Shown here: piece by piece, positions 5,915 to 23,206 of the stretch | How the letters are laid out: each line of letters starts with the position of its first letter | Position numbering within the stretch: position 1 is the first letter of the stretch | From: Desulfobacterales bacterium | Lineage (GTDB): Bacteria > Desulfobacterota > Desulfobacteria > Desulfobacterales > UBA11574 | Length of the DNA: 64,000 nucleotides | Direction: 5' to 3' | Assembly: GCA_022340885.1 (NCBI GenBank) | Contig: JAJDND010000085.1 | Span: forward strand, 19,780 to 83,779 | Position numbers and translations under genes: made by a program | The notes under the pieces: generated by a model | What the model was told of the DNA's origin: nothing | Seen by the model: the letters and a program-made list of their open reading frames with translations, nothing else | Databases searched by the model: none

Positions 5915-7291
5915 TCAGTCGTCTTCAGGTTCCAGCCCGAATCGTTTTATTTTGCGCCACAGGGAAACCCGGTCGATGCCCATGATTTTCGCGGCCCTGG
6001 TTTTATTTCCTTCACACTTATCGATAACCCATTTAATGTAATTTTTCTCCTGTTCCTCGAGGGTCGGCAGTGCTTGATCATGCCGGCGATAGGTTTCGAT
6101 GGAAAGATTGCTGATGTATTCCGGCAGTTCGTTAACGGTTATTTCCGGACCGTTGGCCAGCGCAACCGCCCGTTCGATGACATTCTCCAGTTCTCTGATA
6201 TTTCCCGGCCAGCCATACTGGCACAGCAATTCCATGCATTCTTTTTGAATCAATTGAACATCTTTGTTCATGTCCTTGCTCTTTTGAAACAAGAAGTGAT
6301 ACGCCAGAAGCGGAATATCGCCGTTCCGCTCGGTAAGTGATGGAAGTTCTATGGTGATGACATTCAACCGGTAAAACAAATCCTGTCTAAAATGCCCTTT
6401 TTCCACATCTTCCTTGAGCTCGCGATGGGTGGCCGCGATAAAGCGGACATCCACGGGAACCGGTGTTTCGCCTCCCACCGGCAAGACTTCCTTTTCCTGA
6501 ATCACGCGCAACAACTTCACCTGCATGCTCAGCGGCATATCCCCGATCTCATCCAGAAAAACCGTGCCGCCGTCGGCGGTCTTGATCAACCCTGCTTTGG
6601 CCCTTGTCGCACCGGTAAATGCATCCTTTTCATGACCGAACAGCTCATTGGCCATGAGTTCTTCCGTAAACGAACCGCAGTTAAATGCGATGAATTCTTT
6701 TTCTGAACGGGGACTGAACCGGTGGATGGATCGGGCGACCAGTTCTTTGCCGGTGCCGCTTTCACCGAGAATCAAGACGTTGATGTCCGAAGGGGCGATC
6801 TGGTGAATTGTTTTCTGAATCTCCATCATGACCTTGCTTTGTCCGACAATGGATGAAATCTTTTGCTGTTTTTTGAGGGTTTCCTTGAGCTCGATGTTCT
6901 CAAGCCGAAGACGCCGTTTTAACAGCGCCTCCTTGGTAATCTGGCGAACTTCTCCGATGTTATAGGGTTTGGCGATATAATAATAGGCACCGTCATGCAT
7001 GGCCTGAACCGATGTTTCTATCGTGGCGTAGCCGGTGATCATAATGACTTCCGTGTAAGGCTGAAGCGTTTTTGTTTTATGAAGCACCTGCATGCCGTCG
7101 ACTTTGTCCATTTTCAGATCGGTAATCACAAGATCGAAATTTTGTGACTGAAGCATGTCAATGGCCTTTTGGCCGTTGTTGACGGCAACGACATCGTAGC
7201 CGGTTTTGATCAGAATATGCTCCAGGTTTTTTCTTGCAATATCCTCGTCTTCGACAACCAGAATGATTTCATTTCTGTTTTTCACGTTCAT
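5915..7291 (-). CDS. Sigma54-dependent response regulator (NtrC/AtoC family: REC-AAA+-Fis HTH)
   Basis: Receiver [27 protein letters not shown] (GAFTGA variant), [16 protein letters not shown]-terminal [11 protein letters not shown]. Confidence 0.95.
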
Positions 7292-7296
7292 CCTTA

Positions 7297-8724
7297 TTAT
7301 AATTGGCGCTCTCCGGCCTGATGATACGGCAGGAAACAGGTGAAGGTTGTACCTTTCCCGATTTCGCTGGAAACAGATATCTTCCCGTCATGTTGTTCCA
7401 TGATGCCGTAAACAATGGAAAGCCCCAGCCCCGATCCCTTTCCGACACCTTTTGTGGTAAAAAAAGGGTCAAAAATTTTTGAGAGGATTTTTTCATCGAT
7501 GCCTTCACCCGTGTCGATCACGTGAAAAGAAAATCCATCTTGCGCCTTCTCATGTCTGGCGCTGATGGTAATCTCACCGCCGTCCTTCATGGCATGAACG
7601 GCATTGACGATAAGATTGATCAACACCCGTTCTATTCTCTGGGGTCCCAGGGTAGCCCGGATATCTTCGGGAACATCGATGTTGAAATGTATATTGTCCG
7701 GCACCTGAGATCGAACTTGGGATATGGCGCTGTCCACCAAATCTTTAAACACCACGTGTTTCAAGCTTAAAGACCGCTCCCTGGCGAACTCCAACAGAGA
7801 TCGAACGATCTCCTTGCCCCGCTCCACTTCTTTTTCAGCGCCGGTCAGCAGTTCTTTTTTATATTCCAGGTTGTTTTCCGCCAGTTCCTCGATAAGGATC
7901 TGAAGGGAGGTAGATATATTGTTGAGCGGATTGTTCAGTTCATGAGCCACGCCCGAGGTCAGTCTTCCCAGGGAAGCCAGCTTCTGCGCCTGCACGAGCT
8001 GCTTGCTTCGCTTGTTCAATTCATCGATCATATTATTTAGACTGGTCACCAGGGATTCGAATTCATCCCCGGTTTTAATTTCCGGGATATTGTTAAAATC
8101 TCCCCTTGCGATTCTGGTGATGGCGTTTTCAATGGTTTTCAACGGACGGTTGACATTGAAAATCAAAAACAACGCCACTAAAACAGAGAGGATAAAGACG
8201 GGGATCAGCGCCAACAGATGGATCGTCTTTGATTTTCCGATGAGATTTTGGGTAAATTGTCTTTCTTTTGTAACGATTTTTTCCAGCTCGCTGGTCAGAA
8301 TCCTACCCTGGGATCGAATGCGTTCGACGGTATTCGGGGGGACCATTAAATACCCTTGTTCTTGGAGTTTCAGAAGATTGGCGAGAGAATCCTTGTATGT
8401 CACCAGTTCGGTAATTCTTTCATCGAGGTTCTGGGCCAGGGTATATTTTGAGTATCGGGTCAATATATCGCGAAGGATATCCTCGGCCCGTTGGATATAG
8501 TTCAAGGCCTCGGTGATGTTCTTTTTATCAAAGGACAAAAAGTAGTTTTTCTCGTACCGGCGGGCCTCAAGAATGGTGTTTAAAAGATCGTACTTTCTTT
8601 CGATAATCTGGATCTTCTGATTGAGGATATACTGGCTGTAATAACTGCGTGCCCATATCAGGCTGCTGATGCCGATAAAAATAACAAAGGCTAAAAATAT
8701 TTTCCCTCTGATGCTGATTTTCAT
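7297..8724 (-). CDS. Membrane sensor histidine kinase (HAMP-HisKA-HATPase)
   Basis: Two TM segments, GVAHELNNPL H-box, NLIVNA, DTGEGI, PFFTTK..GSGLGL. Confidence 0.95.
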   Translation of the reverse strand: MKISIRGKIFLAFVIFIGISSLIWARSYYSQYILNQKIQIIERKYDLLNTILEARRYEKNYFLSFDKKNITEALNYIQRAEDILRDILTRYSKYTLAQNLDERITELVTYKDSLANLLKLQEQGYLMVPPNTVERIRSQGRILTSELEKIVTKERQFTQNLIGKSKTIHLLALIPVFILSVLVALFLIFNVNRPLKTIENAITRIARGDFNNIPEIKTGDEFESLVTSLNNMIDELNKRSKQLVQAQKLASLGRLTSGVAHELNNPLNNISTSLQILIEELAENNLEYKKELLTGAEKEVERGKEIVRSLLEFARERSLSLKHVVFKDLVDSAISQVRSQVPDNIHFNIDVPEDIRATLGPQRIERVLINLIVNAVHAMKDGGEITISARHEKAQDGFSFHVIDTGEGIDEKILSKIFDPFFTTKGVGKGSGLGLSIVYGIMEQHDGKISVSSEIGKGTTFTCFLPYHQAGERQL

Positions 8725-8771
8725 CTTTGCATATGATGGGATACAGGGTCCGACGCCGGGAACAGCGGGTA

Positions 8772-9623
8772 TCAGGTATAATAGGGCATTGCAATTTGAC
8801 AGAATACGTTGTTGACGCCGGGTATGTCGCGCGCAATTTCGGTAATCTGCCGGGTTAAATCATCCTGATAGACTTCGCCGAGATGTCGCTGCAATGCCGG
8901 ACTGACATAGCCGGATTTTTTTCGCTTCTGAGCCGCGACCGTTACATGAACGTTCCCGTTTTTAACAAAAACATCGGCCTCGCACACCGGTTGCAGGGCC
9001 GCCCGCAGCCGGCTGGCTATGGCGAAATCTTCCACGATTTGTTTCGACTCATCGGTGGTTCGGTAAGTCTTGCTCCTTGCTGCAAGACAAATGATTTCAC
9101 AGGCGTCTTCAATTGTCAAGTTTCCGATATTAATTACAATATCATAAAGCTTGGGGTCATGAATATCTGTCTTGTACAGATACCGGGTCCAGTAGATTCG
9201 ATTCTTGTCTTCATTTTCAATGATTCCGGTCGCTTTTTCTTTTGTGACGTTTTCACGCTTTTGAAGCAACTTGATCCGGTCGTCTTTATCGGCAAGGATT
9301 CTTACTTTGAGCACCTGGGGAATCTCTGTCAGCAACAGATGGCCGCCATGGCCGTGATAGACCACATTTCCTTTCCTGGCATATTCCAATAGCGCGGCTT
9401 TGATATATTCAAGATACCGGTCTCTGCCGCGGACCATCCGCTCTAAAATGTTGGGCGCGTCATTGAGCGATCGAATCAGCTTTCTTTCCGAGACATTAAA
9501 AAGCTGGGCGGCCTCCACCAGAATCTCCCGGCTCACACATTCATACCCCAGCATTTTAGCCGTCTTTTCGGCAATCTCCTGACCGTGGCTGAAACATCCT
9601 CGAGAAATGGTAATGACCGCCAT
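8772..9623 (-). CDS. Cytidylate kinase-like family protein with C-terminal extension
   Basis: MAVITISRG..G.EIA, VVYHGHGG, YDIVIN; canonical P-loop GKS/T absent. Confidence 0.8.
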   Translation of the reverse strand: MAVITISRGCFSHGQEIAEKTAKMLGYECVSREILVEAAQLFNVSERKLIRSLNDAPNILERMVRGRDRYLEYIKAALLEYARKGNVVYHGHGGHLLLTEIPQVLKVRILADKDDRIKLLQKRENVTKEKATGIIENEDKNRIYWTRYLYKTDIHDPKLYDIVINIGNLTIEDACEIICLAARSKTYRTTDESKQIVEDFAIASRLRAALQPVCEADVFVKNGNVHVTVAAQKRKKSGYVSPALQRHLGEVYQDDLTRQITEIARDIPGVNNVFCQIAMPYYT

Positions 9624-9645
9624 TGACCGCTAACCTCCTGTACCG

Positions 9646-11460
9646 TTATTGAATGCCGTAAAAGAAATAGAGAATGGCCAACTCCACCGCTAAAAAGATG
9701 GCTGTCATAACGGCTCCCGCCTTGGCATAATCCACGGTACGATAGCCGCCGGGTCTCATCACCAGGGCATTGACCTGATGCGTCGGGAGGACGAATGTAT
9801 TGGATGCCGACAATCCCACGACCAGTGCCGCCATTCTCGGATCTCCTCCGGCCATGACCGCCATATTCATGCACAGCGGAACCAGCAGCACTGTTGCGCC
9901 GACATTGGAAATCACCAGGGTGAAAAAAGACGTCATGATGCCCACCGCCGCCAGCAAGACGATGGGTGAGGGATTACCCAGCATCCCTAGAACGAATTTT
10001 GCAATAAACGCCGCCGTACCAGTTTTCTCAAAAGCAATGCCCAAAGGGATCAGGCCAGCCAGGAGAAACACGGTCATCCAGTCCACGGCGCGATAGGCTT
10101 CATCCACCGAGAGCACGCCGGTGATGATCATGCCCAAGGCGCCGGACATCAGCGCCACGGAAAGCTGAATCTTGAAGAAAATAATTTGCGCCAGGGCCAC
10201 GGCCAGCCAGGTCACCGCCAGTTTGGCTTTTTCAGGACGCATGATTTCACCTTCAAGGGCCGTTGCAAAGGTCAGCGCCCGGGGTTGAGGCTGATTTCTT
10301 AAAATGTGAAATTTCTCCCAGGGTGCCTGGAGCAGCAAAGTATCGCCCATTTGCAGCCGGACGTGGGTCAAGTTGCTGTAAATAATTTTATTGCCGGTAA
10401 ACAGCGCCACCGGGTTTACGCCGTACATTTCCTTAAAATTAACCTGGCTCATGGTTTTGCCGATCAGTTCCGAACGGGGGGAGACCACCGTTTCCGCCAT
10501 TCCGGCATTGATGACCGCAAGGCTCTCTCCAAAAACATCCAGTCCGTTCTTGATCTCCCACCCGTATTCGTCGGCCAGCATTCTCACCATTTTTTCCTTG
10601 CCGATGACGGCGATGTCATCACCCGGAGAAATCGCATCGCTGCTTTTGGGCACAAAGGATTTTTCATTTTCCGCTGAAAAGCTGATGGCCACCACGGTCA
10701 CCAGAAACTTCGGCCGGATGGCCAGATCTTGAAGCGTCTTAGGGCCTTCAAAGGAATCCGGTATGTGTATTTCAAATGTATTTTCAAGCCCTTGGTAGGC
10801 TTCCATCAACAGCGCCGTAACCCCTTTTTCCGCTTCTCCTTCTGCCGCCGGCAAGATAAATTTTCCGAAAAAGATAAAATAAATGATGGCGCTTGAAAGC
10901 AGGCAGATGCCGATGGGGGTTTGAGTGAAAAGACCGAAGGGTTGCAGCTTTTTCCCGCCGAGAACCATCAGGTCATTCAAAAGAATCGTGGGGCTGGCCC
11001 CCACCAGCGTGATGGTACCACCGATGATGGCGCAGAACCCCATGGGCATCAGGAGTCGAGATATCGGGATCCCCATTCTTTTGGAGATCCGCTGGGTCGC
11101 CGGAAGAAACAGGGCCGCAGCGCCGATGTTCTGCATCATGCTCGATATGATGCCAACCGTACCGGATACAAGGGTAATGACCTTTTTCTCGCTGCTGCCG
11201 GCCAGCTTGATAATGGGGCCGGCCACCTTGTTCATGACCCCTGTCTTGTCAAGACCGGCGCCGATGATAATAACTGCCATGATGGAAACAACGGCATTAC
11301 TGCTCAAGCCGACAAATGCCTCTTTCGGCGAAATCAGGCCGATAAGGGGAAGCAGCGCCATCATGATAATTCCCACGACATCGACCCTTACCCATTCAAA
11401 AATAAACAGAACGACGGCAAAACCAAGTACAATCATTGTCAGGATCATCTCAGGTGTCAT
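9646..11460 (-). CDS. SLC13/DASS family permease with TrkA-C domains
   Basis: MMQNIGAAALFLP, GGTITLVGASPTI, two soluble TrkA-C-like repeats, ISNVGATVLLVP, PTHQVN..PGGY. Confidence 0.9.
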   Translation of the reverse strand: MTPEMILTMIVLGFAVVLFIFEWVRVDVVGIIMMALLPLIGLISPKEAFVGLSSNAVVSIMAVIIIGAGLDKTGVMNKVAGPIIKLAGSSEKKVITLVSGTVGIISSMMQNIGAAALFLPATQRISKRMGIPISRLLMPMGFCAIIGGTITLVGASPTILLNDLMVLGGKKLQPFGLFTQTPIGICLLSSAIIYFIFFGKFILPAAEGEAEKGVTALLMEAYQGLENTFEIHIPDSFEGPKTLQDLAIRPKFLVTVVAISFSAENEKSFVPKSSDAISPGDDIAVIGKEKMVRMLADEYGWEIKNGLDVFGESLAVINAGMAETVVSPRSELIGKTMSQVNFKEMYGVNPVALFTGNKIIYSNLTHVRLQMGDTLLLQAPWEKFHILRNQPQPRALTFATALEGEIMRPEKAKLAVTWLAVALAQIIFFKIQLSVALMSGALGMIITGVLSVDEAYRAVDWMTVFLLAGLIPLGIAFEKTGTAAFIAKFVLGMLGNPSPIVLLAAVGIMTSFFTLVISNVGATVLLVPLCMNMAVMAGGDPRMAALVVGLSASNTFVLPTHQVNALVMRPGGYRTVDYAKAGAVMTAIFLAVELAILYFFYGIQ

Positions 11461-11521
11461 CGCTAAATATCCCTTCCTGTGTCATCTCGTGTGATTTTCA
11501 AAATCTTAACGACATCTCCGG

Positions 11522-11602
11522 TCATTTCTTTTTTCTGAACTTAAAACACAGCCAGAAAGCAAAACCGATCAGCACAAGACCAAAAATGAAATGTGAATCC
11601 AC
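11522..11602 (-). CDS. Putative 26-aa membrane peptide (not in ORF track)
   Basis: AGGGAGG RBS 5 nt before GTG; MDSHFIFGLVLIGFAFWLCFKFRKKK = one hydrophobic helix plus basic tail. Confidence 0.45.
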   Translation of the reverse strand: MDSHFIFGLVLIGFAFWLCFKFRKKK

Positions 11603-12075
11603 GCCATCCTCCCTATTTTGATTTTAAAAAGAGTCATATAATGCATAGATTTAAAATTTTTGCAATATGGAATATGGTTTCCGCTCAAAAAAAAAGAAAT
11701 CCTGAAATCCACATAAAATCAGAATCTTCTGTTTCAAGCGCATGGTCAATTCTTGGGAATTAATGGCGTTATAACGTATTTTGTTTATGGCCAATAGTGA
11801 CCTATCCGCCACATCGAGTTTCATTCTGAAACAAACTTCACCTCAACCGCCCAATCCTTGTTTCAAACACGATCGGGGAAATTCAGCGGTTCGAAAAAGC
11901 GATCCTTTGATGAATATTTCGGTTCTGGAATTTTGTGTTGTCCCGAAAGATATCGATTTGAGAATTGTTTCAGTATTTTTCGATTGAATCCTTTAATAAT
12001 TTTTGCTAAGGGCAGGTGAACTATTTTTTCTATGAAGACCATTTTAAAAAAGTGAATACCGACAAAGGAGACTGC

Positions 12076-13626
12076 ATGGACTCAAAAGAAATACTCGATA
12101 AACTCGAGGAAAAGAACCGGGCAGCCATGGAAGGCGGTGGTCCTGATCGAATCCAAAAACAGCATGATTCAGGGAAGCTCACCGCCCGGGAGCGGATCGA
12201 TAAACTTCTGGATGACGGAACGTTTGTCGAGTTCGATCGATTCAAAGTGCATCGCTGTACAGACTTTGGAATGGAGAAAAAAAAGATCCCCGGCGACGGT
12301 GTCGTTACAGGGCACGGGCTGATGAATGGAAGACAAGTATTTGTATTTGCACAAGATTTTACCGCACACGGCGGCTCTCTTTCTCTGGCCCACGCTGAAA
12401 AAATATGCAAAGTTCTCCAGCATGCCATGCGAGTCGGCGCCCCGGTCATCGGACTCAACGACTCCGGCGGCGCAAGAATTCAGGAAGGGGTCATGAGTCT
12501 GGCCGGATACGGCGATATTTTCCTTTTAAATGTTCTGGCATCCGGCGTTATCCCGCAGATCAGCGCCATCATGGGGCCCTCGGCCGGAGGGGCGGTCTAT
12601 TCTCCGGCGCTGACCGACTGGGTGTTTATGGTCGAAAACACCAGTTATATGTTTATCACCGGACCCGAAGTCGTCAAGGCCGTTACCCGGGAAGACGTCA
12701 CCATGGAAGAACTCGGCGGTGCAATGGCGCACAGTGCCAAAAGTGGTGTGGCGCACTTTCCCTGTCCCGATGATGAAACCTGTATCGATAAAATTCGAGA
12801 ACTCATGTCGTTTCTGCCCCAGAACAACATGGAAGATCCGCCTCGGCAATCAACGGACGACGACCCCATGCGTCGCCAGGAAAACATTCGCGACATCGTC
12901 CCTTCGGACCCCAACAAGCCTTATGACATGCGAAATGTCATTACCGCCTGCCTGGACGACAACTATTTTTTCGAAGTACACGAACATTGGGCGCCCAGTA
13001 TCGTCGTTGGATTCGGCAGGTTTGACGGTATGGCGGTGGGGGTTGTCGCCAATCAGCCCGCGGCCATGGCCGGGGTTCTCGACATCAACGCATCCAATAA
13101 AGGTGCCCGGTTTGTCCGTTTTTGCGACTGTTTTAATATACCGCTGGTTATTTTTGAAGATGTGCCGGGGTTTATGCCCGGCACGCACCAGGAACACGGC
13201 GGAATCATCAAGCACGGCGCCAAATTGATCTATGCATTTGCCGAATCCACCGTCCCGCGCGTGACCGTCATCACCCGCAAGGCATACGGCGGCGCCTATA
13301 TTGTCATGAGCTCGAAACATCTTCGGGGGGATATCATTTTGGCTTACCCCAATGCGGAGATTGCGGTCATGGGCGCCGACGGCGCCGTAAATATCATTTG
13401 CCGCAGTCAGATAAAAAAAGCCGACGACCCTGAAGCGGAAAGACAGCGACTGATCGAGGACTATCGGGAAAAATTCTCGAATCCGTACCGGGCCGCGGAA
13501 CACGGTTATATCGATGAGGTCATCGATCCGGCGGACACCCGGCTGAAAATCATCCAGGCCCTAAGGATGCTCAGCAACAAACGAGACAGCAATCCTCCGA
13601 AAAAACATGGAAACATTCCCCTTTAA
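12076..13626 (+). CDS. mmdA: Acyl-CoA carboxyltransferase, methylmalonyl-CoA decarboxylase alpha-like (PccB family)
   Basis: GKLTARERI, DSGGARIQEG, DVPGFMPG, RKAYGGAY, C-terminal KKHGNIPL; AAGGAG RBS before ATG 12076. Confidence 0.85.
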   Translation: MDSKEILDKLEEKNRAAMEGGGPDRIQKQHDSGKLTARERIDKLLDDGTFVEFDRFKVHRCTDFGMEKKKIPGDGVVTGHGLMNGRQVFVFAQDFTAHGGSLSLAHAEKICKVLQHAMRVGAPVIGLNDSGGARIQEGVMSLAGYGDIFLLNVLASGVIPQISAIMGPSAGGAVYSPALTDWVFMVENTSYMFITGPEVVKAVTREDVTMEELGGAMAHSAKSGVAHFPCPDDETCIDKIRELMSFLPQNNMEDPPRQSTDDDPMRRQENIRDIVPSDPNKPYDMRNVITACLDDNYFFEVHEHWAPSIVVGFGRFDGMAVGVVANQPAAMAGVLDINASNKGARFVRFCDCFNIPLVIFEDVPGFMPGTHQEHGGIIKHGAKLIYAFAESTVPRVTVITRKAYGGAYIVMSSKHLRGDIILAYPNAEIAVMGADGAVNIICRSQIKKADDPEAERQRLIEDYREKFSNPYRAAEHGYIDEVIDPADTRLKIIQALRMLSNKRDSNPPKKHGNIPL

Positions 13627-13649
13627 ACCTTTAGAAAGGAGCGCGTTAC

Positions 13650-14798
13650 ATGAGCTGGGATCAAGTATTGGAACTGATTAAAAGCATCCTTTTAACGCAG
13701 ACAGGCATACCGAACCTGGATATCGGCCAGGTGATCATGATCCTCATTTCCTTTTTTTTCCTTTACCTGGCCGTCGCCAAAGAGTATGAACCGCTGCTGC
13801 TCGTTCCCATCGGCTTCGGCATATTTTTGGTGAATTTCCCCCTTGCACCGCTCATGGGATTTACCGAGCACGGCGATCCCCAACTCATCCAGGCCTTTTA
13901 TAAATACGGTGTTCAGTGGGAAATCATTCCCTGCCTGATCTTTTTGGGTCTGGGGGCAATGACGGATTTCGGGCCCCTGATCGCCAATCCGAAAACGCTG
14001 ATCATCGGCGCCGGCGCACAGCTGGGCGTATTCATCACCTATTGCGGAACCCTCTTTTTCGGCTTTACTTTAAAAGAAGCGGCTTCGGTGGGAATCATCG
14101 GCGGTGCGGACGGACCCACCACGATTTACCTGACCGCCATGCTGGCGCCGCAGCTTTTGGGCGCCAATGCTTTGGCCGCCTACTCTTACATGGCCATGGT
14201 TCCCCTCATACAGCCGCCCATCATGCGCCTGATGACCACCCCCGAACAACGGCGAATCAAAATGCGGCAGCTCAGGCCTGTTTCCGCCAAGGAAAAGCTT
14301 CTTTTTCCACTTATCGCGTCGATTTTTATAATTCTTCTGATCCCTGCCGTGGCGCCGTTGATGGGAATGTTCATGTTCGGAAATTTCATGCGCGAATGCG
14401 GCGTGGTGAAGCGTCTCAGCGAAACCGCTCAAAACGCCATGATGAACATCGTAACGATCCTCTTGGGGCTTTCGGTGGGAGCGACCATGCAGGCCGATGT
14501 TTTCTTGAGCTGGAAACCAATGCTGATTTTCGGCTTTGGGCTCTTGGACTTCATTATATGCACCTTCGGCGGCATTCTTACCGTTCACATCATGAACAAG
14601 TTTTTAAAGGAAAAGATGAACCCGCTCATCGGTTCCGCAGGGGTATCCGCAGTCCCCATGGCGGCCCGGGTTTCTCAAGTGGAAGGCCAGAAAGCCGATC
14701 CCGACAACTGGCTGATCATGCACGCCATGGGCCCCAACCTTGCCGGCGTCATCGGTTCCGCCTCCGCGGCAGGAATGTTCATTGCCATGTTCAAGTAG
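13650..14798 (+). CDS. mmdB: Na+-translocating decarboxylase beta subunit (OadB/MmdB family)
   Basis: EPLLLVPIGFG, GIIGGADGPT, YSYMAMVP, GSAGVSAVPMAARV, HAMGPN. Confidence 0.92.
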   Translation: MSWDQVLELIKSILLTQTGIPNLDIGQVIMILISFFFLYLAVAKEYEPLLLVPIGFGIFLVNFPLAPLMGFTEHGDPQLIQAFYKYGVQWEIIPCLIFLGLGAMTDFGPLIANPKTLIIGAGAQLGVFITYCGTLFFGFTLKEAASVGIIGGADGPTTIYLTAMLAPQLLGANALAAYSYMAMVPLIQPPIMRLMTTPEQRRIKMRQLRPVSAKEKLLFPLIASIFIILLIPAVAPLMGMFMFGNFMRECGVVKRLSETAQNAMMNIVTILLGLSVGATMQADVFLSWKPMLIFGFGLLDFIICTFGGILTVHIMNKFLKEKMNPLIGSAGVSAVPMAARVSQVEGQKADPDNWLIMHAMGPNLAGVIGSASAAGMFIAMFK

Positions 14799-14807
14799 GA
14801 GAGATTT

Positions 14808-15755
14808 ATGAATCGTTTAACCCATGGATTTTTCAAGAACGCCATCCGGGCGTGGCTCATTTTGGCCGGGTTGTTGGTGATCCTGGCACCTCGAACGACG
14901 GTTTATGCGGCTTTCGGCGAGGATCTGGAAAAACCCAAGCCCGAATTCACCCGTGAGGGAAATATGATCACGGCCAAGCTCATTCCCCGTGCAAAAAGCA
15001 CCAGCGTTTCGATTCACTTTACGGTTTCAGGCGGCCGACTCGTCAACGTCGAAGGCATGGATTTTCAAGAGGCTGCGCGTCCCGGGGTCGACAATAAGGA
15101 TTTCAAGTCCGAACTTTTTACTATCAAGATCGACGGGGTTCCGCCGGGCGGAGAGGCGAAGGTATCCGTCACGTCGGATTTTTTCAGCAGTTCGACCGAG
15201 TATTGGATATTCAACCGAAACTTGAAAGAACCCTGGATGAATGCCGATGCAAAGAATATCAGCCTGCCGGACATGGTCCAAGAACTTTTGGTTTCGGTAA
15301 AAGACGGCGGGCCTTTTGACAGTGACGGCGCTGTAAATGGCCGGATTACGCTATCGGGAGGACCCAAGGACTCTTTTTGGGGATATGCCCTGGGCACCCT
15401 TTTTATCCGATTCTTCGGTATTTTTCTTGTTTTGTCCATTCTTATGATCGGTATGATCCTTTCGGGCAAAATCTTTCAAATGATAGACAAAAAAAAGGCG
15501 AAAAGGGAAAAAGAGATTCAAGTGCAGCCGGAAGTCCCGGCACCCGATATCCAGCCGACCGAGGCCATTGAACCGGAACTTGCCGCTGCTGTCTGTGCAG
15601 CGCTGCATTTGCACTTTTCAGGGCGCCGGTCCGGGGCAGCGAGTTCCCCATCTATCACGCCGGCGGTATCGCCCTGGGTCCGGCAGGGCCGTGAACGGAT
15701 TATGAACGCCCGATCCATACCCACAAACCGATTTAACCGCTTACAGAATCGATGA
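14808..15755 (+). CDS. OadG/MmdD-like anchor subunit fused to an N-terminal exported domain
   Basis: Signal-like N-terminus, KDGGPFDSDGAVNGRI motif, TM (FFGIFLVLSILMIGM), ELAAAVCAAL and SPWVRQGR OadG-type tail. Confidence 0.75.
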   Translation: MNRLTHGFFKNAIRAWLILAGLLVILAPRTTVYAAFGEDLEKPKPEFTREGNMITAKLIPRAKSTSVSIHFTVSGGRLVNVEGMDFQEAARPGVDNKDFKSELFTIKIDGVPPGGEAKVSVTSDFFSSSTEYWIFNRNLKEPWMNADAKNISLPDMVQELLVSVKDGGPFDSDGAVNGRITLSGGPKDSFWGYALGTLFIRFFGIFLVLSILMIGMILSGKIFQMIDKKKAKREKEIQVQPEVPAPDIQPTEAIEPELAAAVCAALHLHFSGRRSGAASSPSITPAVSPWVRQGRERIMNARSIPTNRFNRLQNR

Positions 15756-15764
15756 GGTTTTTAT

Positions 15765-16298
15765 ATGAAATACAAAATTGCAGTCAATGACCGTACCTTT
15801 GAAGTTGAAATCAATGACATAAAGGAAGGTATTGCCCAGGTAAACGTCGACGGCCGGCCCTATGACGTTCTCATTGAAAACTACAAAGACATCGCAGCAG
15901 GATCGAAGACTTTGAGCCCGGCATTGGTACCCGCTGATGCACCGGCATCCGGGACCATCCCGTCATCACCGGCGAAACCGGCGCCGATATCACCCAAGGT
16001 GCCGAAACCGGCAACGGATACCGCTGCGGCCCCGGCGAAACCGGCAACGCCGACCCCGGCTCCGGCGCCCAAAAAAGTGCAGGCTGCAGGTGAAATCGTG
16101 GCACCGATTCCCGGACGTATCCTGGAAATCAAGGTGAACGTCGGAGATCCGGTGGCCAAGGGTCAAACCGTGGCGACCATGGAAGCGATGAAAATGGAAA
16201 ATAATATTGCCAGCACCATGGACGGTGTTGTTCAGACGATACGGGTTCAAAAAGATTCGGAAGTCGCCACCGGTGAAGTCATTATGATCATCGAATAA
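15765..16298 (+). CDS. mmdC: Biotin carboxyl carrier protein (MmdC-like)
   Basis: EAMKMEN biotinylation motif, Pro/Ala-rich linker. Confidence 0.88.
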   Translation: MKYKIAVNDRTFEVEINDIKEGIAQVNVDGRPYDVLIENYKDIAAGSKTLSPALVPADAPASGTIPSSPAKPAPISPKVPKPATDTAAAPAKPATPTPAPAPKKVQAAGEIVAPIPGRILEIKVNVGDPVAKGQTVATMEAMKMENNIASTMDGVVQTIRVQKDSEVATGEVIMIIE

Positions 16299-16336
16299 TC
16301 GATTCTCTTGTATATCCGGCGACATCGGCGCAAAAG

Positions 16337-16368
16337 AAAATCCGGCCTTTTAAGAAAGGCCGGATTTT
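16337..16368. terminator. Bidirectional intrinsic terminator
   Basis: aaaatccggccttt-taag-aaaggccggatttt perfect stem between convergent genes. Confidence 0.85.
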
Positions 16369-16400
16369 GAGATTTTATGCAGGAAATATCTTAGCGTTCA

Positions 16401-16958
16401 TCAGACCATGGAATAAACATAAAGATTCCGGCGAAGACGCTCCCCCTCTTCGACTCTGCTGTCCTCTCGGTCTTCCAAGGTTTCCGAAACCACAAAAGCG
16501 ATGTCTTTTTGCTCTCTGGTGATGGATTCCAGCGCCTCTTCTGGTTCGCTGAACATCACGATATGGTGAAACGGAATCCCTTTTTCGGCGGCTGCTTCTT
16601 GAAACAAACCGGCATTTTTTTCAGACATGCTCTTAAACTCTTCACAGACCTGATTGCGGGAAGATGAAAACAGCTTGAATGTTTCGCAGGACAGCGGCGC
16701 CGTATTCAGGGCCAAAATTTCATAGGACATCCGCTGTGCCATATCAAGAGCATAGTCAATGATCTCTTTTGAAAAATCGCTTTCTCTGCCCATAACCAGC
16801 AGTTTGGTGGGCGCCTGAACTTCTTTTTGATCCGCCATTGTTTCCATGGCATATTCGGATTCGCCGGCTTCGGCAAAGGTAATCGCTTCTTGATATTTGT
16901 CCATTTTATTGCCGGTTCTGCTCATTTTTCGTTTGATTCTTCCAAAAATTCCAGCCAT
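16401..16958 (-). CDS. Hypothetical protein, USP-like fold, with FAEAGE motif
   Basis: GGAGG RBS; EAITFAEAGESEYAM; KLLVMG..IIDYALDMAQR resembles a USP N-terminus. Confidence 0.75.
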   Translation of the reverse strand: MAGIFGRIKRKMSRTGNKMDKYQEAITFAEAGESEYAMETMADQKEVQAPTKLLVMGRESDFSKEIIDYALDMAQRMSYEILALNTAPLSCETFKLFSSSRNQVCEEFKSMSEKNAGLFQEAAAEKGIPFHHIVMFSEPEEALESITREQKDIAFVVSETLEDREDSRVEEGERLRRNLYVYSMV

Positions 16959-17009
16959 TTTTACCTCCTCCTTCAGTCATCTATATTTTCATTTTCAGGT
17001 TTTTGATTT

Positions 17010-17510
17010 CTAACTGTGAACCGTGACCACTGGAACGGATAAACTTCTCTTTATATTCGCAAGGGTGGTTTTCTTTTCAAAAATATCCGCAGTCCCGCTG
17101 TCTCCGGAAGCATCGTATATAGTCAAAATAACATCCCGATGGTCGTTGACATAATCGACGATCTCTTTTTCCGGATTACCGGAACGGATCGAAAATCGAC
17201 AATGGACGCCTGCCTTTTCCGATTCTTTCAAGAGATGTTCAACCTGCTCAGAGCCTTCGGCCATCAGATCCAAGGCCGTCTCGTGCTCTCCGGCTTCCGC
17301 AAAGGCTGCCGCTGCCATGGTGCTTTCCAAAACTTTCTGTGCAATCATGGCGTTCTTCCGTATCTTTTTGATATACTTGCGATAATACTGGGGTCTGATG
17401 ACCTGGAATATGCTCAACTCGGCACTGATCCGCTTGCAAAGCGAAATCGCATAATGAAATACCTTTTGGTCGCTGGTTATACCGTCTATGGTCAATAAGA
17501 CTTTTTTCAT
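17010..17510 (-). CDS. Universal stress protein-like with FAEAGE motif
   Basis: MKKVLLTIDG, GNPEKEIV, PVVTV; internal AAAFAEAGEHETALDLM. Confidence 0.8.
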   Translation of the reverse strand: MKKVLLTIDGITSDQKVFHYAISLCKRISAELSIFQVIRPQYYRKYIKKIRKNAMIAQKVLESTMAAAAFAEAGEHETALDLMAEGSEQVEHLLKESEKAGVHCRFSIRSGNPEKEIVDYVNDHRDVILTIYDASGDSGTADIFEKKTTLANIKRSLSVPVVTVHS

Positions 17511-17547
17511 GGTGATCCCCTTTTATCCGCTGCCCATTTCAGCCTGG

Positions 17548-17724
17548 TTAAACATGCATCCTGGGACGGGTCTCTTCGCTCCGGCGAACACGGTCTTCGG
17601 CCTTTCTTCGGGACTCGCTTTCCGGGCGATCATGCATGATATCGAGCGCTGTCTCATGCTCGTTGGCCTCGGCAAAGCTAATGGCCGCCATCAATCTGTC
17701 GAAAGTTTCTTTGAATTTAAACAT
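17548..17724 (-). CDS. 58-aa protein with FAEANEHETAL motif (not in ORF track)
   Basis: GGAGG RBS; MFKFKETFDRLMAAISFAEANEHETALDIMHDRPESESRRKAEDRVRRSEETRPRMHV; motif shared with the two downstream genes. Confidence 0.8.
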   Translation of the reverse strand: MFKFKETFDRLMAAISFAEANEHETALDIMHDRPESESRRKAEDRVRRSEETRPRMHV

Positions 17725-17775
17725 GGTGGAATCCTCCGTTGCTCAATATTGTTTTTGCTGTTAATCATTGTTAGA

Positions 17776-17790
17776 GCAATTCCCGTGCCG
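17776..17790 (-). promoter_or_regulatory. Sigma54 -24/-12 promoter
   Basis: CGGCACGGGAATTGC on the minus strand, about 50 bp upstream of the 58-aa gene. Confidence 0.75.
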
Positions 17791-17868
17791 GCTTGATCAA
17801 AAACATTTATCTTATTGATATTGTTATATTTATATAGACATAAGCGGGCAAATGACATCCAAACAGAA

Positions 17869-17971
17869 TGTTGCAACATGCAACAGTTTTTCCGATGATA
17901 AAAATATTCAGTTTAATATTAGCAGGTTATACAACATTGCAAAAAAGAATGCTCCGTTGCACATTGTAACA
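17869..17971. promoter_or_regulatory. Two palindromic enhancer-type sites TGTTGCA-N3-TGCAACA
   Basis: tgttgcaacatgcaaca 17869-17885 and cgttgcacattgtaaca 17955-17971. Confidence 0.65.
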
Positions 17972-18059
17972 CCCAAATATCCCTTAAAATCCGGTCGTAA
18001 AAAATTATTGCGAAGGTCGATTGAATCTGATTGTATACAAAAAATAAAGGAATCCGATC

Positions 18060-20063
18060 ATGCGAATATTTAAGAAGGAAAAAGGACAATTGAAGGAACT
18101 GCCGGCGGAAATCAATGAATTAAGGGAAGATGTGCAAAGCGCCAAAATGCCCGAACCGGTGGAAAAGGTCGTTTACAAAGAACTCGAGCGGCTGACCAAA
18201 ACTTCTCCTTCGAGCGCTGAATACACCATCGGAATCAACTATATCGATTATCTGTTGAGTCTGCCCTGGAACAAAATGACTAACGACAACCTCGATATTA
18301 AACGGGCGGAATCCATCCTCAACGAAGATCATTTTGGGCTGGTCAAAATAAAAGACCGCATTCTGGAGCATCTATCCGTCAGGATTTTAAAGATGTCCGG
18401 CCAACATAAGATCCTGGTGGTGGATGATGAACAAATTACCCGCCAGAACCTGGAGCATGTTTTTAAAAAAGACGGCTATCACGTCAATACCGCATCGGAT
18501 GGCCAGGAAGCGTTGGATTTTCTGGGAAAAAGCGCATTTGACGTTATCGTCACGGATCTCAAAATGGGCAAAGTCGATGGCATGACGGTTCTGGAAAGCG
18601 CCAAAGCGGTCAACCCGGGCACCGAAGTGATTATCATCACTGGGTACGCCACCGTATCCACGGCCATTGAAGCCATGAAAAAAGGATCGTATCATTATCT
18701 GACCAAGCCGCTAAAACTCAATGAAATCCGGTCGACCATCCAAAAAGCATTGTATAAAAAAACGGTTCGGTTAGAGCCCAAAGGTCCGGTGCTTTGTTTT
18801 GCCGGCCCGCCCGGAACCGGAAAAACGTCTCTGGGCATGTCCATTGCCAGAAGCCTGGAACGAAAATTTGTCCGCATATCTTTGGCCGGCATGAAGGATG
18901 AGGCAGAGATAAGAGGCCACCGCAAAAGTTATGTCGGTGCGCTGCCGGGAAGAATTATTCAGGAAATTCGACGTGCTGAAACAAAGAATCCCGTGATTAT
19001 GCTCGATGAAATCGATAAAATCGGTCGTGATTTTAAAGGAGATCCTGCCGCAGCACTTCTGGAGGTTCTCGATCCCGAGCAAAATACGCATTTTGTGGAC
19101 CATTACCTGGATGTTCCCTTTGACCTGTCCCGTGTGATGTTCATTGCCACCGCAAACGCCCTGGATCTCATACCCGGACCCCTGCTGGACCGGCTGGAGG
19201 TGATCACCTTGTTGGGATACACGGAAGAAGAAAAAGAGAAAATCGCGAGCCGGTATTTAATCCCGAAAGAAATTGAAGAAGCGGGGCTCATTGAAAACTC
19301 GCCGGTGTTCACGGAGGAAACCATCCATAAGATCATCCGGGAGTACACACGGGAAGCTGGGCTGAGAAATCTTAAGCGCCAGATTGCTTCCATCTGCCGT
19401 AAGATTGCCCGTGAAACTTTGCGCGGCGGGTATAAAAACGAACCACATATCCTAACCCCTGAAATGGTGGAGGATTTTTTAGGCCCTCGAAAATTCTATT
19501 TTGAAGTTGCGGAAGCCAAAGAAAGGGTGGGCGTGGCCACGGGGCTGGCATGGACGGAGGCCGGGGGACAGATCATCTTTATTGAAGCCGCCAAGATGAA
19601 AGGGAAAGGAAATCTGATGCTCACCGGGTCATTGGGAGACGTGATGAAAGAGTCGGCCCATGCCGCGATGAGTTACATACGAAGCCACGCCGCTGCTTTC
19701 AATATCCCGGACAGCATATTCGAAACCTATGACATCCACATCCATGTGCCTGCCGGCGCGATTCCCAAAGACGGTCCATCGGCGGGCGTCACCATCGCCA
19801 TAGCGCTTATCAGCCTGATAACGGACCGATCCTGCAAAAGAAACGTAGCATTGACCGGGGAACTGACGCTGAGCGGAAGGATCCTGCCGGTGGGCGGGGT
19901 CAAGGAAAAGGTCCTGGCCGCACACCGGGCCGGTGTGAAAGCCGTGGTCTTCCCGGCCAGAAACGATTCGGACATCAAGGATATTTCCGAGGATATTAAA
20001 AAAGATATTCAGATCATCGAAATCGATGAATTGGAGGAAGTCATCGATGTGGTGTTGAATTAG
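18060..20063 (+). CDS. lon: Lon (S16) protease lacking the N-domain, with an inserted receiver domain
   Basis: [20 protein letters not shown] ~18408-18760, [33 protein letters not shown] (Ser), GGVKEK (Lys). Confidence 0.92.
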
Positions 20064-20076
20064 CGACAGGCGTTTA

Positions 20077-20568
20077 TCAGATATACTTGAACATGGCAAA
20101 AGTCAGGTCTTTTGGGGTCGGGTTTCCGGTTTTGACAAATCCGCGGCTTTGATAGAACGCTTCCGAGGAAGGAAATTTGGGAACTTCTACTTCCATCTCA
20201 CTCATTCCCATTTGCCTGAACAAATTTTCACACTGCTCATACAAAAGCGAACCATAGCCTTTTCTGGAATAGATCATTTTGACTTGCAATGTTTTGATGA
20301 CCAGCTTCACCCCCCTTCGAACCACGAGCACACAACCGATAAGATCTTCCTCATCGTTAAGCAGCATGGCCAGATATCCCCTTTTCATCTCTTCTTGAAT
20401 TTTCTCGGGCGTTGCAAAGGCCACCAGTCTTTCGAGATCTTCCGGACGATACTCGCCCTGATGAACATCCTGAGTGTTTTGCCGGATCAGAGCTGCAATT
20501 TTCTTTGCTTCGGAATCACTCAACGGTTTTGAATTTTCCCTTAAATTGTCTATGACTTTGATTTTCAT
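20077..20568 (-). CDS. GNAT family N-acetyltransferase
   Basis: LQV..YSRKGYGSLL motif A; AFYQSRGF motif B. Confidence 0.8.
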   Translation of the reverse strand: MKIKVIDNLRENSKPLSDSEAKKIAALIRQNTQDVHQGEYRPEDLERLVAFATPEKIQEEMKRGYLAMLLNDEEDLIGCVLVVRRGVKLVIKTLQVKMIYSRKGYGSLLYEQCENLFRQMGMSEMEVEVPKFPSSEAFYQSRGFVKTGNPTPKDLTFAMFKYI

Positions 20569-20605
20569 TTGTCAGGTCTTATTTTAAAATCCGGACCGTT
20601 ATCGT

Positions 20606-23206
20606 TCATTTTGAATCGAGGATATTGCAAATGTCTTTTTCGAGCTTTTGCTGGTAATGGTTCAAAGCGGCGTTGTTGCTCATGATCATGTCGAGTTGTC
20701 GGGTATGAAGCGTCAGATAACCCAGAATTTCGAGGCGGTTTTTCATGTACTCCATGTCATGGCCTTCCACCCGCGCAATGAGATTGTCTTCTCTTATATC
20801 TACTCTGAAGCCCTGTTTTTGAAGTATTTCCGCAATTAAATGAACTCTTCCGAGTCGTCTCTGATGATCTGCCGCACCCCCCTTAAATTGGAAACTGATG
20901 TAGTTTTCCGTCAAGCGTTCGCTGACCAGTGCTTCCATGATGGAAAAATGATATCCCAGTCTCGAACTTAAGCTGCAATAATTTTTGGAGATCATAAAAT
21001 AATTACGGGCACCATAGGCCGAACGAAGACCGGGAATTAAATTCCGATTGGTCGTCGATTGAAATACAACCGATGCAAAGCCCTTGCCGTCAATCGCCGG
21101 CGGGCCTTCCCAGGCAACGGCGCTGAATCCTTTCCAGAAAGCCAGCATCGGAATGGAAGCGATATTTTCAAGCGTAACATATTTGCCGCTTATCTCTTTC
21201 TTGAATCCATCATCCAAATTCAAAATCCACCATTGCATGGGGACGTTATAATAAAGTTGCTTGCTCGATTTTTCTGAAAAATTGTGCGCCTTCCCGAAAT
21301 TAAACATCTCGATTACTGCTTTTTCATGGATAAACCGGGTGATGTCATGAAGGGTTTTGCAGTTGACCGGACGAAAGTAAGGAGAGTCCGGGTCGAGCAG
21401 GTTTAAAGGGATAATCAGGCGGCTCACCCGTTTCAATGTTTCATAGACCGGGCTGCCTTGCATAAGATTCATCTTTGGTCCGGATTTTGTCGATAATGAC
21501 TTTATCTCACCTTTATAAATGGTTAAGGTATCGGCATCGACAGTAACCTGTTCACCATGATTCAGTCGATCCATAGCACCGGGTACGCCGAAGAGCGCGG
21601 GAACACCGAACTCTCTAGCTACACTGGCGAGATGTCCGGCAAAACCGCCCTGCTCCGTTATCACGGCAGCCGATCTGTTTAACAGGGAAGACCATATGGG
21701 GAGCGCCTGACGCGCAACCATAATCGCCCCCTGGGGAAACTGCAAAAGATCCATGGTCTTGTCCACCAGGAAAACCTTCCCGCTGGCCGCGCCCGGACTT
21801 GCGGTCACGCCTTGTCCTGCAATAACGGCATTATGGGATCTCGTAAATTCAGGCTCGGGGAGGTCCGTTTTCAACGGCTTTATTTGCTTCAAAGGCCGGC
21901 ACTGCAGGATGTAAATTGCATCGTCCTTGTCAACAGCCCACTCGATGTCCTGGGGTATCGCATAATATTCTTCAATCCTGGCCGCAAGTTCCGACAACTC
22001 CAATGCCTTTTTATCATCAATGGAGGGCAGATCCATTTGATCTCCGGTTAACCCCGTTTGGCAGACCCCTTCTTCGGGCAGGCATACAAATTTTATTTTT
22101 TTGGTGTTTACTTCTTTACGAATAATTTTTCCGGCAGGTTTTTTTGAAACGACAAAAAGATCATAGGCATCACTGCCGTCGACCACGGACTTGGGCAAAC
22201 CCCATGCGGAATTGATAAACATCGCGTCATCGGCAATATCAACGGGATTCCGGGTATAGGCGACGCCGCCTGCCACGGCGTCCACCATGCGCAGGCACCC
22301 CACGCACATGGCAATATCTTCATCCTTAATCCCCCTGTTCAACCGGTATGTCACAGCCTGAAACGAGTATTTGCTTGCCAGAATCTCCTTATATGCCTGA
22401 AAGATGCTGTCAAAGCCGACGTTCAGCTCGCTCCGGTACTGGCCGGCAAATGAGCTCTCCGGCATATCTTCTCCCAGGGCGCTGCTTCTTAATGCCAAAG
22501 CGACTTTTCCTTTAGCGTCCGATTCGAGTCTGGCATAGGCCCGCCTGACGGCTTCGGCCACATCGTCGGGTATTCTGGATCGGATAATAAGCTGCTGGAT
22601 TTTTGAGCTCAGGGCATAACGTCTTTCGACATTATCGCCTTCATCGGATTGAAAAAGTCGGTCAATTTCCATCTGCAAGTCGTTATCCTGGATAACCCTT
22701 TCACAGGCCGCCGCAGTAATGACAAATCCTTCTGGGATTTTGATCTGAAGTCTATTTTTAATTTCACCGAGGTTGGCCATCTTACTGCCGACAACATCCC
22801 TCATCTCCATACTTACGGCGTCAATGGGGATAACAAGCCTTTTATCTTTCATCGATTTCTTCTGCGAAAGTAATTCGTCCATCTTTTGCCGGATTTCGTT
22901 AAACCGTTTATCGAGTTCCCCGTATCTGCCTTTGGAGAGGTTTCCGATATGTTTTATCATATTAAAAACATTGACGGAAACCGCCGTACAGCTTGCCCGG
23001 ACAAAGGCCATGCCAAAAGGCTGTCCGCTCTCAAGGACCCGTTCCATATCGGCCATAATTTCAAGCGCCCTGTTATTGGCATTCAGCAGAAGTTTGAAAC
23101 TGTGATACCGTTCCTTGAACTCAATGCGAAGCTGTTCGACATCACCGGCTGCAGGTTCCGGCTTTTTAATAAAAAGCTTTTTAAAATGGTTCAACAGCGC
23201 GCTCAT
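20606..23206 (-). CDS. PEP-synthase/PPDK-like protein (nucleotide-binding plus phospho-His domain, no PEP-binding barrel)
   Basis: VGSKMANLGE, LRSSALGED..SFAGQY, PQDIEW..ILQCRPL, ITEQGGFAGHLASVAREFGVP. Confidence 0.85.
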   Translation of the reverse strand: MSALLNHFKKLFIKKPEPAAGDVEQLRIEFKERYHSFKLLLNANNRALEIMADMERVLESGQPFGMAFVRASCTAVSVNVFNMIKHIGNLSKGRYGELDKRFNEIRQKMDELLSQKKSMKDKRLVIPIDAVSMEMRDVVGSKMANLGEIKNRLQIKIPEGFVITAAACERVIQDNDLQMEIDRLFQSDEGDNVERRYALSSKIQQLIIRSRIPDDVAEAVRRAYARLESDAKGKVALALRSSALGEDMPESSFAGQYRSELNVGFDSIFQAYKEILASKYSFQAVTYRLNRGIKDEDIAMCVGCLRMVDAVAGGVAYTRNPVDIADDAMFINSAWGLPKSVVDGSDAYDLFVVSKKPAGKIIRKEVNTKKIKFVCLPEEGVCQTGLTGDQMDLPSIDDKKALELSELAARIEEYYAIPQDIEWAVDKDDAIYILQCRPLKQIKPLKTDLPEPEFTRSHNAVIAGQGVTASPGAASGKVFLVDKTMDLLQFPQGAIMVARQALPIWSSLLNRSAAVITEQGGFAGHLASVAREFGVPALFGVPGAMDRLNHGEQVTVDADTLTIYKGEIKSLSTKSGPKMNLMQGSPVYETLKRVSRLIIPLNLLDPDSPYFRPVNCKTLHDITRFIHEKAVIEMFNFGKAHNFSEKSSKQLYYNVPMQWWILNLDDGFKKEISGKYVTLENIASIPMLAFWKGFSAVAWEGPPAIDGKGFASVVFQSTTNRNLIPGLRSAYGARNYFMISKNYCSLSSRLGYHFSIMEALVSERLTENYISFQFKGGAADHQRRLGRVHLIAEILQKQGFRVDIREDNLIARVEGHDMEYMKNRLEILGYLTLHTRQLDMIMSNNAALNHYQQKLEKDICNILDSK

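Follow-up and report, generated by a model that had tools for sequence, protein, structure and literature searches.

A Lon protease with a built-in receiver domain in a Desulfobacterales genome and the histidine kinase that it likely shares with a sigma-54 activator

A signalling pathway in which one histidine kinase serves both a transcription activator and a protease has been proposed in Desulfovibrio vulgaris. In this organism, the genes DVU3303-3305 were presented as a three-component system made up of a receiver-containing Lon protease, a kinase and an NtrC-type activator, and the proposal includes a protease activity that depends on phosphorylation (Rajeev, 2011; PMC3333781). According to the same account, DVU3305 regulates the upstream genes DVU3302-3298, some of which have UspA domains, and the two have associated orthologues in further genomes, Thermodesulfovibrio among them (PMC3333781). 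In the list given by Kazakov (2015; PMC4641369), DVU3302-3298 are sigma-54-dependent and DVU3303-3305 are marked as being without such a promoter. Finally, pairwise cofitness values above 0.9 were reported among the three D. vulgaris genes (Trotter, 2023; PMC10102598), and the anion transporter DVU3299 was named as a regulatory target (PMC10102598).

Here we analyse a stretch of 64,000 nucleotides from a Desulfobacterales bacterium (assembly GCA_022340885.1, contig JAJDND010000085.1, positions 19,780 to 83,779 of the forward strand), hereafter called the window; positions are those of the window unless another contig or locus is named. It carries a lon gene whose product has a receiver domain (REC) in front of its ATPase motifs (REC-Lon), together with the genes of a sensor histidine kinase (HK) and of an NtrC-type sigma-54 activator, the partner response regulator (RR). 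We describe the architecture of REC-Lon, its conserved residues, the synteny of the three genes, the sister relationship of the two receivers and the conservation of promoter and palindromic sites, and we consider it likely that the window kinase serves both the sigma-54 activator and REC-Lon. The cluster is a "three-component" stress system of the DVU3303-3305 type, hence of a known kind and not a new one. Indeed, a preliminary description of this DNA, made from its letters, had offered the branched kinase/activator/REC-Lon scheme as a candidate whose novelty a search would have to verify, and this idea had already been put forward (Rajeev, 2011; PMC3333781). To the published hypothesis, the present analysis adds the exact insertion point of the receiver, the deep sister relationship of the two receiver families, their common helix-1 signature, a conserved layout of promoter and palindromes, and co-conserved small proteins as candidate substrates.

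The REC-Lon gene (18060-20063, forward strand) encodes 667 residues, which comprise a helical N-terminal region (1-113), the receiver (118-235), an AAA+ module (about 244-457) and the Lon_C protease domain (466-666). Pfam locates Response_reg at 118-227, AAA at 245-386, Lon_lid at 406-457 and Lon_C at 466-666, the last with an E-value of 1.3e-86. Response_reg (PF00072) scores 98.4 bits against a gathering threshold of 30.2, and the substrate-binding domain LON_substr_bdg (PF02190) finds no match in the Pfam scan of the protein. The NCBIfam model of endopeptidase La (TIGR00763) matches with 755.8 bits against a cut-off of 608.05, in two stretches that flank the receiver. Alignment with canonical LonA, represented by the paralogues of the same genome and by the nearest full-length LonAs elsewhere, shows that REC-Lon begins inside the helical region preceding the AAA+ module and that the N-terminal part of LonA is missing. 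Upstream of the ATG, the frame is open for just four further codons (671 instead of 667 residues). In the same alignment, the receiver and its linker stand where LonA has a loop of 4-5 residues, between the last helix of the N-terminal region and the AAA+ strand.

The receiver (18411-18764, forward strand), delimited from Pfam, conservation and an AlphaFold2 model, carries the acidic pair D122/D123, the phospho-acceptor D166 (nucleotides 18555-18557), T194 and K216; its helix 1 spans residues 125-137 and contains the sequence NLEH at 130-133. Further downstream on the same strand are a Walker A motif, GPPGTGKT (residues 249-256; 18804-18827), the Walker B residues D316/E317 (19005-19010), and S574 (19779-19781) and K617 (19908-19910), which, from the LonA motif, we take to be the catalytic Ser-Lys dyad (span 19779-19910). 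Among 36 family members, 58-96% identical to the window protein, D122, D123, D166, K216, P217, the Walker A motif, D316/E317, S574 and K617 are invariant (36/36), and T194 is retained in at least 90%. The AlphaFold2 model built from these 36 members (mean predicted local distance difference test score 79.8) contains a regular (beta/alpha)5 receiver at residues 117-237, with about 6 residues between receiver helix 5 and ATPase strand 1. The preliminary description had read the protein by eye as a Lon starting at the helical bundle without a substrate-binding domain, with an intact receiver directly before Walker A and with intact ATPase motifs and Ser-Lys dyad; domain searches, the LonA alignment, the four upstream codons and residue conservation all bear this reading out. 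The genome carries four further ordinary LonA-like genes with open frames of 752-826 residues (contigs C33, C147, C211, and C166), and REC-Lon is thus an accessory Lon. As a side observation, this complement of four LonA-like genes plus REC-Lon is unusually large.

REC-Lons make up a large, conserved family that spans Desulfobacterota and Nitrospirota. Of the database matches to the window REC-Lon, the 120 listed all contain PF00072 together with Lon_C, and most of them have about 665-670 residues; their source names are just "endopeptidase La" or "ATP-dependent Lon protease". The 120 matches listed for a Desulfohalobiaceae REC-Lon likewise all carry both domains, and no named Desulfovibrio protein is among them. 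In 401 genomes sampled evenly from the window's phylum, the full junction from helix through receiver to Walker A was counted by hand from the match table in at least 45, the source genome included, in frames of 671-855 residues; this amounts to about one sampled genome in nine. The titles of the 79 loci that were fetched name Desulfobacterales, Desulfobulbaceae, Desulfohalobiaceae, and many Nitrospirota/Thermodesulfovibrionales. Among solved structures, a comparison with the PDB did not find a receiver within Lon; all full-length or near-full-length Lon chains match REC-Lon before and after the receiver, as two separate stretches. Some loci hold more than one copy: a Desulfobulbaceae contig (L045) has two REC-Lon genes, at 10001-12010 and 19237-20694; the gene of a kinase that is 53% identical to the window kinase precedes the second of these, and no RR match separates the two. 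L050 also has a second, partial REC-Lon. Short tblastn matches at L081-L087 had the appearance of N-truncated Lons without a receiver and were rejected, the open reading frames (ORFs) being ordinary full-length LonAs of 771-790 residues.

The two other members of the system lie next to each other on the reverse strand. The activator (5915-7291, 458 residues) contains a REC with phospho-acceptor D58, a Sigma54_activat domain and HTH_8 (Pfam). Its GAFTGA loop (residues 223-228), which contacts sigma-54, reads DAFTGA; of the cores of 24 close orthologues, 11 have this variant and 10 have GAFTGA. The kinase (7297-8724, 475 residues) contains HAMP, HisKA (H261) and HATPase_c (Pfam), and hydropathy predicts two membrane helices (about residues 7-28 and 165-195) that enclose a segment of about 140 residues and are followed by HAMP.

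The receivers of REC-Lon and of the activator are close relatives. Residues 118-235 of Lon and 10-127 of the activator align without gaps with 60 of 118 positions identical, exactly the number first counted by eye, and the match continues into the linker (63/122). Within the genome, which is 89% complete and gave 54 and 51 receiver matches for the two queries, they are reciprocal best tblastn matches, at 137 bits against 111 and 108 for the runners-up. Helix 1 of a receiver carries kinase-specificity residues. Both receivers have NLEH in this helix, and NLEH is absent from the three other window receivers tested, as had been noticed on the sequence, and from 46 receivers elsewhere in the genome. 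Family-wide, NLEH occurs in 28 of 33 partner RECs and 41 of 70 Lon RECs, the remainder mostly differing at one position, and in none of the other receiver groups (0/35, 0/11, and 0/46).

The phylogeny that had been called for places the two receivers together. The tree comprises 198 receivers: 70 from REC-Lons, 33 from partner RRs, 11 further NtrC-type ones of the loci, 38 of other kinds from the loci (three of which turned out to be cut REC-Lons) and 46 from the rest of the genome. One split, with a support of 93 in the Shimodaira-Hasegawa-like approximate likelihood ratio test (SH-aLRT), contains the complete sets of Lon RECs (70) and partner RECs (33), plus five extra rows: the three cut REC-Lons, one divergent NtrC-type REC and one receiver from contig C182. 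Within it, the partner RECs form one group (support 85), and the Lon RECs form two groups whose join is poorly supported (support 4). The C182 receiver (C182:1241-1618) falls in the partner-activator clade, on a long branch beside L075_2410. A Lon REC and its partner are on average 52.5% identical (n=33); for the other NtrC-type RECs found in the same loci (n=11) the figure is 40.1%, and for other receivers (n=35) it is 34.4%. The window Lon REC has a mean identity of 34.0% to the 46 receivers elsewhere in its own genome. Hence, the Lon receivers are not equally similar to unrelated NtrC receivers, an outcome that the preliminary description had named as damaging to its scheme. Co-variation or gene conversion between the two receivers of one genome was also considered and gave no signal, since identity within a locus does not exceed that between loci. 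The resemblance is therefore old and family-wide, without lineage-specific covariation, and this pattern alone cannot separate common descent from a shared kinase.

Genomic linkage was surveyed by searching the 79 loci and the window with the window proteins; 69 of them hold a full REC-Lon. Of these 69, 32 contain an RR with 49.5% or more identity to the window activator and 44 a kinase match, many of the 69 being too short to judge. Among the 25 fully flanked loci (at least 8 kb on each side), 18 have the partner RR within 10 kb of lon at the same identity threshold. Two layouts recur. In the first, found in 17 loci mostly with Nitrospirota-type titles, Lon, a single kinase and the RR are directly adjacent. 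In the second, found in seven close relatives (L014, L016, L018, L021, L031, L032, and L077), the genes for RR, HK, in some cases a cytidylate-kinase-like protein, a permease, a 185-residue protein and a universal stress protein (Usp) follow one another in this order on one strand and are divergent from lon. The window, L009, and L010 have this second order with a Na+-translocating carboxyl-transferase/decarboxylase operon between the permease and 185-residue genes (in the window at 12016-16298, forward strand; Carboxyl_trans, OAD_beta, OAD_gamma, and biotinyl carrier). This operon splits the cluster in these three only and is an insertion, outside the signalling system; it looks recent, as no decarboxylase match lies between the permease and 185-residue genes in those other relatives in which both of these genes were matched. 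Its insertion accounts for the 9.3 kb between kinase and lon in the window. In the phylum sample, an NtrC-type REC match lies on the lon contig within about 12 kb in at least 34 of the 45 REC-Lon genomes, again by hand count. The neighbourhood survey proposed at the outset thus finds the three genes together well beyond the window.

That one kinase feeds both proteins is thus likely because of neighbourhoods with one kinase and two receivers, sister receivers sharing a helix-1 signature, invariant phospho-acceptor residues, and the cofitness of the D. vulgaris genes. This part of the preliminary scheme stands on the synteny, the joint clade, the helix-1 signature and the cofitness above 0.9; the role given to the permease, discussed below, does not, and the idea is not novel.

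Several observations weigh against a shared kinase. The window kinase and RR lie 9.3-10.8 kb from lon, past the inserted operon, and 7 of the 25 fully flanked loci have no partner RR within 10 kb of lon. Of these seven, L009 and L029 do show the orthologous kinase (93% and 49% identical), truncated where the locus ends, which counts in favour of the linkage, and L010 shares the window arrangement, so that its RR would sit more than 10 kb away; L048 has an RR 43% identical, L069 just a kinase 31% identical, and L037 and L076 show neither kinase nor RR. Of the 70 Lon RECs, just 41 keep the strict NLEH, and helix 1 of the window Lon receiver has as many identities (7/13) with a receiver on contig C109, which lacks NLEH, as with the partner RR. 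Lon and partner RECs of the same locus are 53.1% identical (n=29) and those of different loci 51.6% (n=812), and, as far as the sequences go, common descent alone could explain the similarity of the receivers. The window lacks a sigma-54 promoter upstream of the permease-kinase-RR unit, even with up to two mismatches allowed. Literature searches on receiver-containing Lon found no biochemical study of phosphotransfer or protease activity, and the window was likened to DVU3303-3305 by matching descriptions, not by sequence comparison.

Some of these points fit another explanation, in which the Lon receiver is a duplicate of the activator receiver and Lon now receives its phosphoryl groups from another kinase, from acetyl phosphate or through cross-talk, with no branched pathway. 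Same-locus similarity no higher than cross-locus similarity, window genes about 10 kb apart in separate transcription units, the 7 of 25 well-flanked loci, and some 50 receivers plus many kinases in the genome would all agree with it. However, synteny is held across two phyla, with a single kinase gene directly beside both genes in 17 loci, the helix-1 signature is retained in both families and in no other receiver tested, and cofitness exceeds 0.9 for all three D. vulgaris genes (PMC10102598). We regard a duplicated receiver under other control as unlikely.

It is quite improbable that the Lon receiver acts through a heterodimer with the activator receiver or as a phosphate sink, Lon degrading or draining the activator in a negative feedback. 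The two RECs being sister families, their alignment extending into the linker after the receiver, and Lon having no substrate-binding domain of its own are all compatible with such contacts. However, if Lon removed the activator, lon and activator mutants would be expected to show opposite phenotypes, and the D. vulgaris mutants are alike, with cofitness above 0.9 (PMC10102598); that lon, kinase and RR mutants have fitness effects of the same sign speaks against Lon simply destroying the activator (PMC10102598). Finally, a structural pseudo-receiver that replaces the N-terminal domain and is never phosphorylated would agree with the lack of direct evidence of phosphorylation, but it is very improbable given the invariant D122, D123, D166, K216, and P217, and T194 in at least 90%, in 36 sequences down to 58% identity, and a Response_reg score far above its cut-off (98.4 against 30.2 bits).

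With one kinase serving both receivers, the mechanism could be the following, in which we infer the phosphotransfer, the direction of its effect on protease activity and the substrates. The membrane kinase would autophosphorylate on H261 and pass the phosphoryl group to the two sister receivers, at D58 of the activator and D166 of Lon. The phosphorylated activator would bind TGTTGCA-N3-TGCAACA palindromes between the Usp genes and lon and fire the sigma-54 promoter at 17790-17775 toward the genes of a 58-residue protein with a FAEAGE-type motif, of Usp and of the 185-residue FAEAGE protein; in relatives, a second promoter of like kind may act before the permease-kinase-activator genes. In parallel, phosphorylation of the Lon receiver would switch proteolysis by an enzyme that has no substrate-binding N-domain. 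The receiver of NtrC1 represses ring assembly until phosphorylated. By analogy, the switch would most likely act on REC-REC contacts that govern ring assembly or pore access, a guess prompted by the position of the receiver on the N-terminal face of the ATPase, the place of the substrate domain in LonA, and by its NtrC1-type nearest relatives. If the kinase does phosphorylate the Lon receiver, REC-Lon would be a protease with a two-component switch built into its ATPase ring, and a membrane sensor would control protein degradation directly, with no adaptor and in parallel to transcription. The family that would behave in this way is widespread and has genetic support in a tractable model organism.

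The regulatory sites of this scheme lie in the spacer of 549 bp between the Usp gene and lon, which was compared in 22 orthologous spacers. A -24/-12 promoter-like site for sigma-54, CGGCACGGGAATTGCT (17775-17790, reverse strand), faces the 58-residue, Usp and 185-residue genes and has one mismatch to what we take to be the -24/-12 consensus. A sigma-54 site facing the Usp genes is present in 20 of the 22 spacers, and a sigma-54 promoter facing lon in none of the 22. A perfect palindrome, TGTTGCA-N3-TGCAACA (17869-17885), is located about 80 bp upstream of the -24 element and is a candidate activator site. A second palindrome with two mismatches, CGTTGCACATTGTAACA (17955-17971), is found some 105 bp ahead of the lon ATG. 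Of the 22 spacers, 21 contain one palindrome or more. In four relatives, a second sigma-54 site (one mismatch) and the same kind of palindromes stand ahead of the permease gene.

The three genes facing this promoter share a sequence motif, x-M-x-A-x-x-F-A-E-A-(G/N)-E-x-x-T-A, that lies within a helix-like stretch. The first gene after the promoter encodes a 58-residue protein (17548-17724, reverse strand) that combines a FAEANE helix motif at its N-terminus with a basic tail and the conserved C-terminal residues R-P-x-(L/M)-x-(V/L). It is followed on the same strand by a Usp of 166 residues (17010-17510) with the FAEAGE motif inserted at about residues 66-90, and by the 185-residue protein (16401-16958), which has the motif at its N-terminus and of which the remainder weakly matches Pfam Usp (E 0.081). 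Of the 63 REC-Lon loci that could be evaluated, 44 have an ORF with the strict FAEAGE pattern within 3 kb of lon. Across the 3.55-Mb genome, translated in six frames, the strict pattern has 10 matches, three of them in the lon cluster. The motif is encountered in three contexts: in proteins of 54-62 residues with a basic tail, as an N-terminal extension of proteins of about 160-190 residues, which give weak Pfam Usp matches (E 0.016-0.08), and as an insert in Usp. The 26 small proteins (54-62 residues) align well and have in common the N-terminal motif, the basic tail and a C-terminal R-(P/K)-x-L-R. Searches of the FAEAGE proteins against Pfam and NCBIfam gave nothing significant save the Usp domain of the 166-residue protein, and no family in them covers the motif. 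A literature search for the motif returned no relevant paper, the single paper containing the string being unrelated.

The motif also ends two receiver proteins directly after REC-Lon in L028 (2458-3584), and two receiver proteins about 7 kb past the window end on the same contig. A second signalling cluster was seen in that region (C186:84172-94311, 0.4-10.5 kb past the window end), whose ORFs, unscanned by Pfam, resemble an NtrC-type RR, two kinases, several single-domain receivers and a 537-residue membrane protein. The FAEAGE proteins (58-residue, Usp and 185-residue) may, though this is doubtful, be dedicated clients, adaptors or anti-adaptors of a phospho-gated REC-Lon, with the motif an undescribed signalling peptide module. 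Complex prediction of REC-Lon with the 58-residue family scored 0.01 against a mark of 0.32; controls were not folded, and the result counts neither way. If the FAEAGE proteins were indeed such partners, one kinase would induce them through the activator and control their removal through REC-Lon, in a produce-and-destroy pulse circuit.

The permease (9646-11460, reverse strand), called SLC13 in the preliminary description, is a CitMHS/DASS-type anion permease with two TrkA_C domains. The earlier proposal that its module acts as the sensor is not upheld: the permease query finds no match in loci with Nitrospirota titles, the corresponding transporter is named as a target in D. vulgaris, and the kinase has its own segment of about 140 residues between the membrane helices. 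The permease is probably a regulated target rather than the sensor. Between permease and kinase, a cytidylate-kinase-like protein (PF13189; 8772-9623, reverse strand) is co-transcribed with the kinase and is syntenic in relatives. On the other side of the cluster, just downstream of lon, an 866-residue protein with PPDK_N and the mobile domain PEP-utilizers is encoded at 20606-23206 on the reverse strand. PPDK_N-type proteins 30-36% identical to it recur near REC-Lon in both phyla (L036, L046, L048, L059, L063, and L064).

REC-Lon harbors features of several known systems. With canonical LonA (TIGR00763), it shares the AAA+ module, the lid and the S16 protease with its Ser-Lys dyad, and its core is 63-68% identical to that of full-length LonAs. 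In contrast, it has no substrate-binding N-domain and carries a receiver plus linker of about 125 residues before AAA+ strand 1. The solved receivers closest to its own are those of the NtrC1/NtrC4 activators (PDB 1ny5, 1zy2, 4l4u, and 3dzd; E about 1e-24 to 6e-21), in which a receiver is likewise joined to an AAA+ ring ATPase. However, the output of REC-Lon is a protease ring and not sigma-54 remodelling, and its linker after helix 5 has about 6 residues in the model. In the accounts of RssB-ClpXP and CpdR-ClpXP, a two-component receiver also controls regulated proteolysis, and REC-Lon gives weak NCBIfam matches to the RssB and CpdR models at the level of the receiver. In those systems, the receiver is a separate adaptor acting on ClpXP, whereas in REC-Lon it is covalently part of the protease subunit, and the protease is Lon.

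The closest relative of the whole cluster is DVU3303-3305, as far as the published descriptions of it go. In each, a Lon with a receiver is accompanied by a single kinase and an activator of the NtrC type, a sigma-54-dependent operon that encodes Usp-type proteins and an anion transporter runs in the divergent direction, and the lon side is devoid of a sigma-54 promoter; for both it is proposed that phosphorylation activates the protease. The kinase and activator of the window end the permease operon on the Usp side and are not downstream of lon, the window cluster is split by the decarboxylase operon, and the activator loop is DAFTGA in place of the GAFSGA of DVU3305 (PMC4641369). The window reproduces the published features and is a member of the DVU3303-3305-type system with a different gene order.

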